Shown: positions 13,300 through 18,128, counted from the stretch's first letter. The stretch: 32,000 nt of DNA from Clostridium kluyveri (GCF_001902295.1 NZ_CP018335.1:1926702-1958701), one strand, 5' to 3'. The notes: generated by a model not told the origin, from the letters alone. Numbers and translations: made by a program.

Positions 13300-13351
13300 A
13301 TAGACAACTCTCTATATCATGTATATAATATACATATAGAGAGTTGTCTAT
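13300..13351. promoter_or_regulatory. Promoter plus large inverted-repeat operator of the arsR-hgcAB operon
   Basis: Perfect 18-bp inverted repeat ATAGACAACTCTCTATAT (13300-17) / ATATAGAGAGTTGTCTAT (13334-51), 16 bp apart. The left arm overlaps a -35-like TAGACA (13301-06). TATAAT (13324-29) lies 17 nt downstream, inside the spacer. Confidence 0.6.
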
Positions 13352-13397
13352 GTGTATATACTAATAATATGATTACAGACCAATGGAGGTGGATCAA

Positions 13398-13745
13398 ATG
13401 AAACATAACTATGCTGAATATGTACCAATATTTAAAGCACTTGCAGATGAGACCAGATTAAAAATAGTTGATATGCTTTCCTGTGGTGAGATGTGTGCTT
13501 GTGATATTTTAGAGTTTTTTAATATTACACAGCCAACACTTTCATACCATATGAAGATTTTAACTGATTGTAATATTGTTAACGCCAGAAAAGAAGGTTC
13601 TTGGATGAAATACTCTCTAAACTTACTTAAATTTGAGACATTTGAGAAGTTCGTGAACGACATCAGTAAAAATACTGATGATTGCATATGCAAAAATTAC
13701 TGCAAAAATATTAAAAAATGTTCCGATGATTCTGAGTGCAAATAA
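13398..13745 (+). CDS. arsR: ArsR/SmtB-family metal(loid)-responsive transcriptional repressor
   Basis: Contains FKALADETRLKIVDML, a Cys triad LSCGEMCACDI in the position of the ArsR ELCVCDL As(III) site, and the wHTH ITQPTLSYHMKIL. I prefer ATG 13398 (GGAGGTG 13385-91 lies 6 nt upstream) over ATG 13383. The C-terminal tail is Cys-rich. Confidence 0.85.
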   Translation: MKHNYAEYVPIFKALADETRLKIVDMLSCGEMCACDILEFFNITQPTLSYHMKILTDCNIVNARKEGSWMKYSLNLLKFETFEKFVNDISKNTDDCICKNYCKNIKKCSDDSECK

Positions 13746-13783
13746 GTCTTATAGGAAATTAGAAATTTGGGAGGTTAGTAAAT

Positions 13784-15321: not shown

Positions 15322-16377
15322 ATGAGTATCGAACCCAAAAACAAATTGTCTTTTTTAGATAAGTTTTTAACACTTTGGATTTTTATTGCAATGGCAATAG
15401 GTATTTTATTAGGTTGGGGAGTTCCAGGTTTATCAGAGGAATTATCTAAATTATCTGTTGGTACTACATCTATACCCATAGCAATTGGACTTATTGTAAT
15501 GATGTATCCCCCACTTGCAAAAGTAAACTATAAGGAGATTGGAAAGGTATTTAGGAATCCAAAAGTTTTAGGATTATCACTTATCCAGAACTGGATTATA
15601 GGACCAATACTAATGTTTATACTTGCAGTAATTTTTTTGAAATCATATCCTGCATTTATGACAGGACTTATATTAATTGGTCTTGCAAGATGTATTGCTA
15701 TGGTTATTGTGTGGAATAGTTTAGCTGACGGCGATACGGAATATGCGGCAGCTCTTGTAGCGTTTAATTCTATATTCCAAATTATATTTTATTCTATATA
15801 CTCTTATATTTTTATTACAGTCTTACCAACTTGGATTGGTCTTACAGGTTACAAGGTAGATATATCAATGGGAGCAGTTGCTTCATCAGTAGCAGTTTAT
15901 CTGGGAATACCATTTGCGTTAGGTATATTAACAAGACTTTTATTAGAACCTAAAATGGGCACTGAATGGTACACAAAAAAGTTTATTCCTAAAATAAGTC
16001 CTTTGGCATTAATTGCTTTATTATTTACTATAATAATTATGTTTACTTATAAGGGGAAATATATAGTGGAGTTACCTATGGATGTGATAAGAATAACTAT
16101 ACCACTTATAGTTTATTTTGCTATTATGTTTACAGTTTCCTTCTTTATTAGCTTTAAAGCTGGTATTGATTATAAAAAAACGACTACTCTTGCATTTACG
16201 GCTGCAAGTAATAACTTTGAACTTGCTATTGCTGTAGCAGTTGCGGTGTTTGGGGTAGAATCTAAAGAGGCATTTACAGCAGTAATAGGACCACTTGTTG
16301 AAGTTCCAATTATGATAGGACTTGTGAATGTAGCTCTTCATTGGGGAAGAAAGTATTTTGGTTTAAAACAAGAATAA
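15322..16377 (+). CDS. acr3: ACR3-family arsenite efflux transporter
   Basis: The N-terminus [23 protein letters not shown], the conserved Cys context [12 protein letters not shown] and the conserved Glu context [13 protein letters not shown] are present, with about 10 TM segments. ATG 15322 lies 8 nt after GGAG (15310-13); the track's GTG 15313 overlaps that RBS. Confidence 0.85.
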
Positions 16378-16444
16378 TTATATTTATTATGTGTTGTGAA
16401 TTTAATTAAGAAATGATAATAAAGTACATGAGAGGAGAAAATTT

Positions 16445-18094
16445 ATGAAAGTTGTTATAATAGGTGCTGTAGCTGGTGGAACATCTGCGGCCGCGAAAGC
16501 AAGAAGAAATGATGAAAATACAGAAATAAAAATATTTGATATGGATTACGATATATCTTATTCAGGATGCGGATTACCTTACTATATAGGAGAAGAAATA
16601 CAGGATAGAGGCGATTTAGTTCCAAGAAATGCTGAATTCTTTAAGAAAAAATATAATGTAGATGTATTTAGAAGACATGAAGTTTTAAAAATAATTACAT
16701 CGTATAAAGTTTTGATAGTAAAGAATTTAGAGACTAATGAGATATTTACTGAAAACTATGATAAATTAGTGATTGCCACAGGAGCAAAACCTATAGTACC
16801 TAATATACCAGGAGCAGAGAAGAGTAACGTGTTTTATTTAAGAAATGTACTTCAAGCAGATAAGATAAAAGAATACATATTAGCTCACAAACCTAAGTCA
16901 GCAGTAATAATTGGAACTGGTTTTATAGGATTAGAAATGGCGGAGAACTTAAAGAATCTTGGGATTGAAGTTACACTGGTAGAACGTCTAAATCAGGTTA
17001 CTCCTGGATTAGATAGTGATATGGCTGTATATGTAGAAAAATACTTGAAAGACAAAAATATTAATGTAATTTTAGATGATTCAGTAGTTGAATTAAATGG
17101 ATATGGATTAATAAATCAAGTAGTCCTGCAGAGTGGTAAAGTATTAAATACAGACTTTGTAATTATGTCTATAGGGGTAAAACCAAATGTAGAGATTGCA
17201 AAAGAAGCTGGAATTGAACTTGGAGCCAAAGGTGCTATAAAGGTAAATACAAAAATGATGACCAATATAGAAAATGTATATGCTTGTGGGGACTGTGCTG
17301 AAAGTTATTCTGTTATTACAAAAAAGTCTTTTTATAGGCCATTAGGTTCAACAGCAAATAAAATGGGTAGGATAGCAGGAGATCAGCTTTCAGGGGGCAA
17401 TCTTGAATTTAGGGGTATACTTGGTACTGGTATTTTCAAAATTTTCGATATGACCGTTGCTCAAACTGGTCTTACAGAAAGAGAAGCTCTTAATGAAGGT
17501 TTTGAACCAGTTGTTTGCCATAATATCAAGCCAGATAAACCAACATACTATAATGGAAAAGAAATGGTTATTAAGGCTGTCGCAGATAAAAAAACTAGAA
17601 AGCTTCTTGGAGTTCAGATAGTAGGATATGCTGGTGTTGATAAGAGGGTAGATGTATTTGTTACTGCAATAACCTTTGGGGCTAAGGTGGAAGATTTATT
17701 TCATTTAGACTTGGCATATGCTCCACCGTTTTCAACAACGAAAGATCCTGTTATGTACACAGGAATGATTTTAGATAATGTAATAAATAGGGATAGAAAA
17801 CTTATAACACCTAATGAGCTTCATAAGCTTATAGAAAGTAGAAATGATGTTACAGTTATTGATGCAAGAGTTTGTAGACAGTTTGAAGAATCTCATGTAG
17901 ACAATGCTATAAATATACCACATGATGAAGTAAGAGGAAAGGTTAACCAATTGGATAAAGAAAAACCAATTGTAGCTTACTGCAATAAAGGCGTAACAGG
18001 AAATGCAGTGCAGAATATATTAATGAATAATGGATGTAAGAAAGTTTATAATATTTCTGGCGGTCATGAGAATTATAAAACACAAACTAATTAA
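16445..18094 (+). CDS. CoA-disulfide reductase / NADH-oxidase-family flavoprotein fused to a C-terminal rhodanese domain (CoADR-RHD type)
   Basis: 549 aa. The FAD motif VVIIGAVAGG, the single redox Cys context SYSGCGLPYYIG and the NAD motif IIGTGFIGLE are present. The C-terminal ~100 aa form a rhodanese domain with active-site loop AYCNKGVTGN. Confidence 0.8.
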   Translation: MKVVIIGAVAGGTSAAAKARRNDENTEIKIFDMDYDISYSGCGLPYYIGEEIQDRGDLVPRNAEFFKKKYNVDVFRRHEVLKIITSYKVLIVKNLETNEIFTENYDKLVIATGAKPIVPNIPGAEKSNVFYLRNVLQADKIKEYILAHKPKSAVIIGTGFIGLEMAENLKNLGIEVTLVERLNQVTPGLDSDMAVYVEKYLKDKNINVILDDSVVELNGYGLINQVVLQSGKVLNTDFVIMSIGVKPNVEIAKEAGIELGAKGAIKVNTKMMTNIENVYACGDCAESYSVITKKSFYRPLGSTANKMGRIAGDQLSGGNLEFRGILGTGIFKIFDMTVAQTGLTEREALNEGFEPVVCHNIKPDKPTYYNGKEMVIKAVADKKTRKLLGVQIVGYAGVDKRVDVFVTAITFGAKVEDLFHLDLAYAPPFSTTKDPVMYTGMILDNVINRDRKLITPNELHKLIESRNDVTVIDARVCRQFEESHVDNAINIPHDEVRGKVNQLDKEKPIVAYCNKGVTGNAVQNILMNNGCKKVYNISGGHENYKTQTN

Positions 18095-18128
18095 CTAGAG
18101 TGAAAAATGCTCTAGTTTTATTTTTTAT
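18093..18128 (+). terminator. Rho-independent terminator closing the arsR-hgcAB-acr3-CoADR unit
   Basis: Perfect 8-bp stem AACTAGAG (18093-100) / CTCTAGTT (18110-17) with a 9-nt loop, followed by TTATTTTTT. The stem overlaps the stop codon. Confidence 0.65.

Follow-up and report, generated by a model that had tools for sequence, protein, structure and literature searches.

A 32-kb stretch of Clostridium kluyveri DNA (hereafter the window; all coordinates are counted from its first letter) carries the mercury-methylation genes hgcA and hgcB inside an operon of the arsenic-resistance (ars) type. Five open reading frames (ORFs) were called there, all on the + strand, in the order arsR-hgcA-hgcB-acr3-CoADR/rhodanese, the last encoding a coenzyme A (CoA) disulfide reductase (CoADR) fused to a rhodanese domain (RHD). 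We consider it probable that these genes form a 4.8-kb cassette served by a single promoter, in which genuine hgcAB lie between a canonical ArsR and ordinary ars cargo, and that co-regulation of hgcAB with arsenic defence has been selected. The presence of hgcAB within ars-type operons has already been described, and the C. kluyveri locus is one more clean instance, which does not amount to a new type of system. A reading made earlier from this stretch of DNA alone (the sequence-only reading) had regarded the five-gene arrangement as uncharacterised, but hgcAB beside arsR, acr3 and arsC have been published repeatedly (McDaniel et al. 2020, Zhang et al. 2023, Peterson et al. 2025), and the arrangement would not surprise a specialist. 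What the locus adds is a canonical ArsR and operator, the recognition of acr3 and the CoADR-RHD gene as a standard ars module, and direct evidence that an hgcAB cassette was assembled from modules and moved recently.

Genes and regulatory region of the cassette

Profile scores are given in bits and were read against curated NCBIfam cut-offs. The hgcA gene (13784..14992, + strand) encodes 402 aa from a TTG start with a GGGAGG site 9 nt upstream. Its product scores 487 with the HgcA equivalog NF040863 (cut-off 275), aligned over positions 1-325 of the 325 in the model, whereas it stays below the cut-offs of the paralogue models, with 199 vs 285 for the HgcAB-like fusion and 78 vs 306 for CFeSP gamma. 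The cap helix NVWCAAGK (residues 156-163, nt 14249-14272) contains the corrinoid-ligating Cys and is invariant across 15 aligned homologues, and the whole protein matches RefSeq WP_347472895.1, 'mercury methylation corrinoid protein HgcA [Clostridium kluyveri]', at 100% identity. A crude hydropathy scan gave clear segments only at residues 247-302 and 378-396, fewer than the about five transmembrane helices proposed earlier for the C-terminal domain, although the alignment with the HgcA model does reach its last position. The hgcB gene follows after 10 nt (15003..15302, + strand) and encodes a 99-aa 2x[4Fe-4S] ferredoxin that scores 130 with its own equivalog, NF040864 (cut-off 99), and has two CX2CX2CX3C motifs (Cys19/22/25/29 and Cys49/52/55/59; CMECGAC is residues 49-55), an internal Cys72 and a terminal CC at 98-99. 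With both proteins above the equivalog cut-offs and the fusion and CFeSP models below theirs, the profile check sides with the sequence-only reading: the window pair is true HgcA and HgcB, neither CFeSP nor a fused paralogue.

Ahead of its modelled core, HgcA has a Cys-rich N-terminal extension (residues 1-77, 13784-14014; CCC at 13913-13921), and its start is annotated variously in public records, giving 335, 341, 402 or 421 aa. The N-terminal CC/CCC was considered as an adaptation to arsenic and rejected, being present in 12 of 16 ArsR-linked and 35 of 54 unlinked HgcAs (47 of 70 overall). An As(III) site in the extra CxC of the HgcB tail was likewise rejected, as this CxC occurs in nearly all HgcBs whatever the context.

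The first gene, arsR (13398..13745, + strand), encodes 115 aa, as in RefSeq; an alternative start at 13383 would give 120 aa, and ATG 13398 is likely to be the true start because a GGAGG ribosome-binding site lies at 13387-13391. The product has the winged-helix fold (NF033788 ArsR/SmtB subfamily, 90.6 vs 55; PF01022, 56.6 vs 22) and is 53-59% identical to ArsRs heading arsRDA-acr3-arsC-type operons and to the AMRFinder-named 'As(III)-sensing ArsR' of pLI100 (host Listeria innocua). Cys34, Cys38 and Cys40 (numbered from 13383) fall in SCGEMCAC, and the LSCGExCACD helix-3 site and a C-terminal DDCIC motif are common to the window ArsR and the ArsRs of canonical ars operons: SCGEMCACD in the window aligns with SCGERCACD in pLI100, SCGELCACD in pSSP1 (host Staphylococcus saprophyticus) and SCGEKCACN in C. 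tyrobutyricum. Since its third Cys is N-terminal, not C-terminal, to the CxC pair, the protein is assigned to the Firmicute subtype; with the E. coli R773-type model PRK10141 it scores 62.8, below the cut-off of 97. A BigR-like persulfide sensor, which would suit the CoADR-RHD gene, was also considered and rejected (NF040642, 40.9 vs 155), the operator and Cys site matching those of arsenic ArsRs.

Upstream of arsR lie two operator boxes, ATAGA-N6-TCTAT, at 13300..13315 and 13336..13351, each a 16-bp box held in one 18-nt arm of an inverted repeat (13300-13317 and 13334-13351, 100% complementary). Both were called from inverted symmetry (perfect in box 1), pattern match (exact in box 1) and conservation. 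Box 1 overlaps the -35 element and box 2 lies over the predicted transcription start, with the -10 element between them, in a sigma-A type promoter on the + strand (13301..13329; TAGACA 13301-13306, 17-nt spacer, TATAAT 13324-13329). In a pattern search these were the only perfect boxes in the window, and the other near-matches lie at least 5.6 kb downstream, with none else in or adjoining the operon. TAGACA-17-TATAAT is the best promoter match in 12900-18500 (11/12); promoter-like matches overall are not enriched (23 observed vs 28.8 expected), so the case for the operator rests on conservation instead. Among the hgcA or ars loci compared (labelled L001 to L107, with WIN for the window locus), the twin-box layout is kept with matched changes in both arms in L081, L083 and L093, whose HgcAs are 77-83% identical to that of the window. 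The box core reads CTCTC/GAGAG in the window and L081, CTATC/GATAG in L083 and TTCTC/GAGAA in L093, and the -10-like hexamer between the boxes is retained as TATAAT in L083 and L093 and as TATACT in L081. Such matched changes appear to mark a constrained protein-binding palindrome, the predicted ArsR site. In addition, the same box type, also as promoter-adjacent tandem pairs, precedes arsR1 and arsR2 of pLI100, arsD of pSSP1 and the C. tyrobutyricum plasmid operon arsR-arsD-arsA-acr3-arsC. The earlier assignment of an As(III)-type ArsR holds, as Cys site and operator match those of proven ars-operon ArsRs; ArsR and its twin operator are of the canonical Firmicute As(III) type, and ArsR is predicted to bind the boxes and to be released by As(III).

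A single transcription unit seems likely for the five genes because the gaps between them are short (38, 10, 10 and 67 nt, the third being 19 nt if acr3 starts at ATG 15322), no terminator with a stem of more than 6 pairs lies between them, and there are one strong promoter and one terminator. The hgcA stop is overlapped by the hgcB ribosome-binding site (TAAGGAGG). The only + strand terminator with a stem of more than 6 pairs is an intrinsic one at 18093..18128 (10-bp stem then T-run; -9.9 kcal/mol, z = -2.56). Every motif and gap quoted in the sequence-only reading was reproduced, together with its five genes, operator, single promoter and single terminator. Its claim that arsC, arsM and mer genes are missing also stands, none being found anywhere in the window by NCBIfam and Pfam profile searches and annotation; ArsC, which is common but not universal in ars operons, is present neither as the low-molecular-weight protein tyrosine phosphatase (LMW-PTPase) type nor as the glutaredoxin (Grx) type in operon or window. 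An ArsR with operator and an arsenite efflux pump in one unit make this a Firmicute ars operon. RefSeq already names all five products in two C. kluyveri genomes, and the locus matches CP110856.1 at ~783-805 kb.

The acr3 gene (15322..16377, + strand; RefSeq WP_073538591.1) encodes an ACR3-family arsenite efflux permease (TIGR00832 equivalog, 438 vs cut-off 283); an alternative start lies at 15313, and ATG 15322, as in RefSeq, is most likely the true one. Its motifs ARCIAMV (residues 125-131) and GPLVEVP (residues 326-332) hold the conserved Cys and Glu, which are functionally important in the family. The CoADR-RHD fusion (16445..18094, + strand; 549 aa), the 'pno' of Clostridiales ars operons, is of the CoA-persulfide/NADH persulfide reductase type: it has the Pfam domains Pyr_redox_2, Pyr_redox_dim and Rhodanese, aligns at full length with 3ICR (B. 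anthracis CoADR-RHD, E = 3e-122), 3NTA (Shewanella Npsr) and 8A56 (E. faecalis CoA-persulfide reductase), and conserves both catalytic Cys42 (redox) and Cys513 (rhodanese). With the stand-alone CoADR model TIGR03385 it scores 469, below 579, and the plain CoADR name is unsuitable. Canonical ars operons contain homologues that are 52-57% identical, namely arsR-D-R-A-B-B-[CoADR-RHD] in pLI100 (54% identical) and Enterococcus plasmids, arsD-A-[CoADR-RHD]-arsR-arsB-arsC in pSSP1 and arsB-arsC-arsD-arsA-FeS-[CoADR-RHD] in Cytobacillus firmus p1. Moreover, Fusibacter sp. 3D3 has arsD-arsR-pno-acr3-arsC, where Pno is a pyridine-nucleotide-disulfide oxidoreductase with a rhodanese domain (PMC9751042). 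The pair of acr3 and CoADR-RHD is an ordinary, pre-existing ars module and, being standard in ars operons, says nothing specific about HgcAB. The idea that the fusion stands in for ArsC, as a rhodanese/Acr2-like arsenate reductase, was rejected as a general rule because pSSP1, Cytobacillus p1, Fusibacter and L002 have both, and because its loop, CNKGVTG, is without the C-X5-R signature. An apparent complementarity is seen in hgcAB loci, with CoADR in WIN, L006, L021 and L011 and ArsC in seven others.

Mosaic origin and movement of the cassette

The two halves of the operon match two different contigs of one genome, that of Clostridium sp. WILCCON 0269. Window 13300-15304 is 84.3% identical at the nucleotide level to L081, the match ending at the hgcB stop, whereas window 15370-18097 is 96.5% identical to L103 on a second contig, a separate arsR-acr3-CoADR-RHD operon without hgcAB, whose ArsR is 40% identical and whose first ~17 acr3 codons are unrelated to those of the window. 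Because of these unequal identities to a single genome the two halves have different histories, and on nucleotide comparison the operon is shown to be a mosaic of an arsR-hgcAB module and an acr3-CoADR module, joined at the hgcB/acr3 boundary, where identity breaks (15304..15370). The closest hgcAB relatives with context read are L081 itself (HgcA 83% identical) and L083, a fermentation-metagenome clostridium (80%), and both hold arsR-hgcA-hgcB only, without pump or reductase; the HgcA of Clostridium sp. BJN0013 (P0002) is 88% identical to that of the window. Across the close clade, ArsR identity (77-78%) tracks that of HgcA (77-83%), and Acr3 stays at 62-66% whatever the HgcA distance; Acr3 does not appear to have co-diverged with ArsR-HgcA.

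The five-gene cassette is also a discrete unit of similarity. Complete, from 13280 to 18097 (+ strand), it recurs at 96.3% nucleotide identity over 4821 nt in L105, L106 and L107, which make up two further contexts (L105 and L106/L107). The flanks of L105-L107 are unrelated to those of the window in DNA and translated comparison, and L105 and L106 differ outside a shared 5.4-kb core. By these alignments the finished cassette is shown to have moved between genomic contexts, apparently recently. Its recurrence, taken with the different histories of its halves, is direct, recent evidence that hgcAB moved horizontally together with arsenic-resistance genes. Earlier work inferred horizontal hgcAB movement only from phylogeny, and no hgcA was found near mobile-element genes (insertion sequences, transposases) by McDaniel et al. 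(2020; PMC7438021).

At the cassette boundaries no terminal repeats above 8-mers were found, and none of 72,556 plasmid records carries hgcA. A foreign base composition of the cassette was considered and rejected (GC 0.33 vs 0.32 for the window), as was a Tn916-like element as its carrier, the Int/Xis module of L107 lying beside the cassette and pointing away from it, not around it. This Tn916-type integrase/excisionase module (L107 8629-11302) interrupts arsP ~1.3 kb downstream of the cassette; arsP is intact in L106, and a resolvase gene lies ~1.6 kb upstream of the cassette (L106 301-891). Downstream of the cassette, the metagenomic copies have another, short ArsR of 97 aa, 39% identical to the window ArsR (L105 8896-9189; L106 7535-9199 region), and in L106 and L107 then by an ArsE-like thioredoxin and an ArsP permease. 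This second arsenic unit, which C. kluyveri does not have, would handle organoarsenicals. An IS605 OrfB (TnpB-type) gene splits hgcA from hgcB in L091 (7408-8367) and L092 (3157-4116), where hgcA is 74% identical to the window's.

The flanks of the cassette in the window are ordinary chromosomal genes (flavodoxin, DUF362 Fe-S protein, polysaccharide deacetylase with its gene starting at 18315, GGDEF protein, CorA), and no RNA elements were found near the operon. The DUF362 protein, into which a 2x[4Fe-4S] domain is inserted, is encoded directly upstream (12020-13150); WILCCON 0269 also has a DUF362 Fe-S gene (L081 11294-12457), ~3.8 kb 3' of hgcB, which may be coincidence. Farther away, a lysine riboswitch (RF00168, 115.5 bits; 27013-27189) lies upstream of an amino-acid permease gene (27222-28766). 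At 174-2236 and 3998-5431, a BcrAD/BadFG-type activator ATPase and HGD-D dehydratase components, with an ABC transporter gene between them, form a 2-hydroxyacyl-CoA dehydratase system unrelated to the hgcAB finding. Intergenic stretches of 66-86 nt, 82-87% identical, are common to the window (23675-23741, 31772-31968) and the WILCCON 0269 locus (L081 1566-1717, 9584-9648); this small repeated element has no tRNA or Rfam match.

Linkage of hgcAB to ars genes and the role of HgcAB

A scan gave 80 species-level hgcA loci among at least 598 matching stretches, C. kluyveri not being one of the 80, and all ORFs within 5 kb of hgcA were clustered, without prior bias, in 85 non-redundant loci. HgcB is a neighbour in 59 of the 85, a MarR-family regulator in 27, ArsR in 23, LMW-PTPase ArsC in 8, CoADR-RHD in 5, and an ArsP-like permease and an ArsE-like thioredoxin in 3 each. 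The sequence-only reading had named a survey of hgcAB-acr3 adjacency as a check on its proposal, and acr3 was indeed found near hgcA, in 12 of the 85 loci. The gene orders differ: arsR-hgcAB-acr3-arsC in L037, arsR-acr3-arsC-hgcAB in L013, arsR-arsC-hgcAB in L020, arsR-CoADR-hgcAB-ArsE in L006, hgcAB-CoADR-acr3 in L021 and arsR-hgcAB-acr3-arsC-ArsE-ArsP in L093, with arsR upstream of hgcAB and acr3 adjoining hgcB also in L001, L037, L025 and L093. Because such joinings recur in different orders, we argue that co-expression of hgcAB with arsenic defence is selected; because the cargo varies and relatives hold arsR-hgcAB only, we argue against an obligatory HgcAB-ars pathway.

Two further neighbours were seen in the same survey. 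A divergent SBF/ACR3-like transporter, 32-34% identical to the window Acr3, takes the acr3 position at several hgcAB loci (directly after hgcB in L008, L010 and L038, upstream in L026), and its substrate may differ from arsenite. The MarR-family gene (~160 aa, cluster c2), commoner within 5 kb of hgcA than ArsR, occurs in L005, L019, L024, L026, L029, L031-L035, L041, L043, L044, L047, L055, L058, L060, L063, L064, L066-L069, L072, L076, L078 and L091. In L026 and L091, the loci in which its place was read, it immediately precedes hgcA; its best NCBIfam matches are all MarR models, all below cut-off, and it looks like a candidate alternative regulator of hgcAB.

As to how the cassette works, we think it rather likely that it is ArsR-repressed, presumably arsenite-/antimonite-inducible, and expressed as a single transcript. 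By analogy with the family, two ArsR dimers on the twin boxes would, without metalloid, sit across the -35 element and the start of transcription and so occlude the promoter. As(III) or Sb(III) would bind the helix-3 cysteines (SCGEMCAC) and release ArsR, and one mRNA would then run from ~13336 to the terminator at 18093-18128. Acr3 would export arsenite and the CoADR-RHD would keep CoA and sulfane-sulfur thiol pools reduced. Since HgcAB would be made together with the ars proteins, mercury-methylation capacity is predicted to be arsenite-inducible. As to origin, the cassette couples the arsR-hgcAB module, the conserved core of the closest relatives, to an acr3-CoADR module that is found on its own in other places. 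For HgcAB itself, the simplest account is that selection has put a soft-metal corrinoid methyltransferase under common control with arsenic defence, without a linear pathway from HgcAB to Acr3.

An arsenic-linked evolutionary function of HgcAB has been explicitly tested in Pseudodesulfovibrio mercurii ND132 (Gionfriddo 2022/23). ArsR-type control of hgcAB by arsenic was shown experimentally in this strain, where ArsR2 controls hgcAB and responds to arsenic (As) and S-adenosylhomocysteine (SAH). Deletion of hgcAB made the strain more sensitive to As(V) and left its As(III) tolerance equal to that of the wild type; presumed thioarsenicals form, and mono- and dimethylarsenicals were not detected (Gionfriddo 2022/23). 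The sequence-only reading had drawn from the wiring a pathway of sensor, methylase, pump and thiol enzyme. That pathway is weakened by the existence of acr3-CoADR as a separate ars module (L103, Listeria, Staphylococcus, Cytobacillus), by the relatives with arsR-hgcAB only, by the different histories of the halves (84% vs 96.5%) and by the result on methylarsenicals in ND132.

One may argue that hgcAB has no functional tie to arsenic, and merely rides in transferred, selected ars cassettes or uses a borrowed ArsR promoter, induction being incidental. In favour of this, the whole cassette travels from one context to another, the ars cargo is highly variable in composition, about 60 of the 85 hgcA loci are without ArsR while 27 have a MarR-type neighbour, and hgcAB expression in ND132 did not predict methylation. 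We nonetheless regard it as unlikely, as arsR and hgcAB have been inherited together stably in the close clade, where ArsR and HgcA identities keep step, and the repeated linkage in different arrangements would be difficult to account for unless co-expression were selected. Moreover, the frequency of acr3 within 5 kb of hgcA (12 of 85 loci) greatly exceeds the roughly 0.5% expected by our own estimate for a gene present 1-2 times per genome.

We give a little less credence to the proposal that HgcAB is a working part of metalloid detoxification, which methylates by corrinoid chemistry, or handles in some other way, As(III), Sb(III) or thio-arsenic species, coupled to efflux, with Hg methylation as a side reaction. 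The independent joining of hgcAB to ars genes in differing orders in many lineages speaks for it, as do a regulator that is a true As(III)-type ArsR and not a look-alike, and related cassettes that add ArsP_1 and Thioredoxin_3 Pfam proteins (L093, L106; clusters c14 and c15 in L025 and L026), since ArsP-family permeases and ArsE-like thioredoxins act on organoarsenicals. The As(V) sensitivity of ND132 without hgcAB fits as well, as do its presumed thioarsenicals, the operon in C. kluyveri holding a sulfane-sulfur enzyme. However, no mono- or dimethylarsenicals appear in hgcAB-carrying ND132, whose As(III) tolerance is that of the deletion, and the nearest relatives (L081, L083) have neither pump nor reductase. 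In addition, Acr3 is known as an exporter of inorganic As(III), not of methylated species, acr3 and CoADR form a working ars unit where hgcAB is absent, and HgcA and HgcB of ars-linked loci have no distinguishing Cys features. The arsenic-linked native role suggested by the sequence-only reading is thus an existing, partly tested hypothesis, and its most specific form, methylation of arsenic by HgcAB, has against it the lack of methylarsenicals in ND132, the one organism examined. A wider version, in which HgcAB is a functional part of a mobile metalloid-defence module and acts on As(III), Sb(III), thio-arsenic or a thiol-bound soft metal that builds up under arsenic stress, seems to us doubtful, slightly more so than the proposal just described. 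If it were true, environmental methylmercury from such organisms would be an arsenite-induced side reaction, and the native function of HgcAB, long sought, would come to light through the C. kluyveri cassette.

It is very improbable that there are two or more units of transcription, with arsR-hgcAB as one and acr3 and/or the CoADR gene read from internal promoters, so that the operon is mere adjacency, for although the mosaic junction falls exactly at the hgcB/acr3 boundary and weak promoter-like hexamers lie at 16362-16390 ahead of the CoADR gene, the hgcB-acr3 gap of 10-19 nt is too short for a promoter and has no terminator, the pair at 13300-13351 are the only ArsR boxes within or beside the operon, and acr3 would be left with no regulated promoter if read-through did not occur.

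Several points weigh against selected co-regulation in a single-promoter cassette, the reading we prefer. Mercury methylation by C. kluyveri has no report in the searchable literature, and co-transcription and the As(III) response in this species are predictions. The 67-nt gap before the CoADR gene contains weak promoter-like matches (9/12), and this gene may to some extent be expressed independently. The precedent of ND132 transfers only loosely, its regulator being of a different, four-Cys ArsR subtype. Finally, the assembly can be read in either of two ways, with hgcAB inserted into arsR-acr3-CoADR, or with L103 derived from the cassette by replacement.

Prediction of methylmercury formation is limited by open questions on what HgcAB natively does and how it is regulated, and to these the locus adds no new one. 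It is nevertheless a cleaner test bed than ND132, with a textbook As(III) ArsR, a defined twin operator and hgcAB inside an ars operon, in a host, the chain-elongating C. kluyveri, that is cultured and industrially relevant. If arsenite induces hgcAB in C. kluyveri, arsenic co-contamination could trigger the capacity for methylation in fermentative Clostridia.

Comparison with known systems

The CoADR-RHD of the window shares its two-domain architecture, at full length and with both Cys, with the CoADR-RHD/Npsr/CoA-persulfide reductase enzymes of B. anthracis (3ICR), Shewanella loihica (3NTA) and E. faecalis (8A56). Its rhodanese loop reads CNKGVTG, whereas that of the solved CoADR-RHD enzymes reads CQxGxRG, and the characterised enzymes sit in sulfide-/persulfide-stress regulons (CstR), not in ars operons. 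With the canonical Firmicute ars operons (pLI100, pSSP1, Cytobacillus firmus p1, Fusibacter sp. 3D3) the cassette has in common the ArsR type (53% identical), the twin operator, an Acr3 or ArsB pump and the CoADR-RHD homologue (52-57% identical). In contrast, none of these operons has hgcAB, and most include arsD, arsA and/or arsC, which are absent from the window.

Among metagenome-assembled loci, hgcAB were found flanked by acr3, arsC, arsM and arsR (McDaniel et al. 2020, mSystems, Fig. 6; PMC7438021), were again observed beside ars genes by Zhang et al. (2023), and were seen in the same company by Peterson et al. (2025), where the presence of arsR goes with lower hgcA transcription in situ. 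These loci likewise have arsR upstream and acr3 adjoining hgcB, and the arsenic link was asked about there too. The window differs in coming from a cultured organism, in having CoADR-RHD in place of arsC, in its defined operator and in a cassette shown, on nucleotide comparison, to be mosaic and recently moved, whereas those papers gave neighbourhoods only. In the arsR2-hgcAB locus of ND132 (Goni-Urriza 2020, Gionfriddo 2022/23), an ArsR-family gene also lies directly upstream of hgcAB and shares its transcript, and derepression by arsenic was established by experiment. However, its ArsR2 is atypical, with four Cys and a response to SAH, and hgcAB has no further ars genes beside it, whereas the window combines a classical helix-3 CxC ArsR with classical ars cargo in the same unit.

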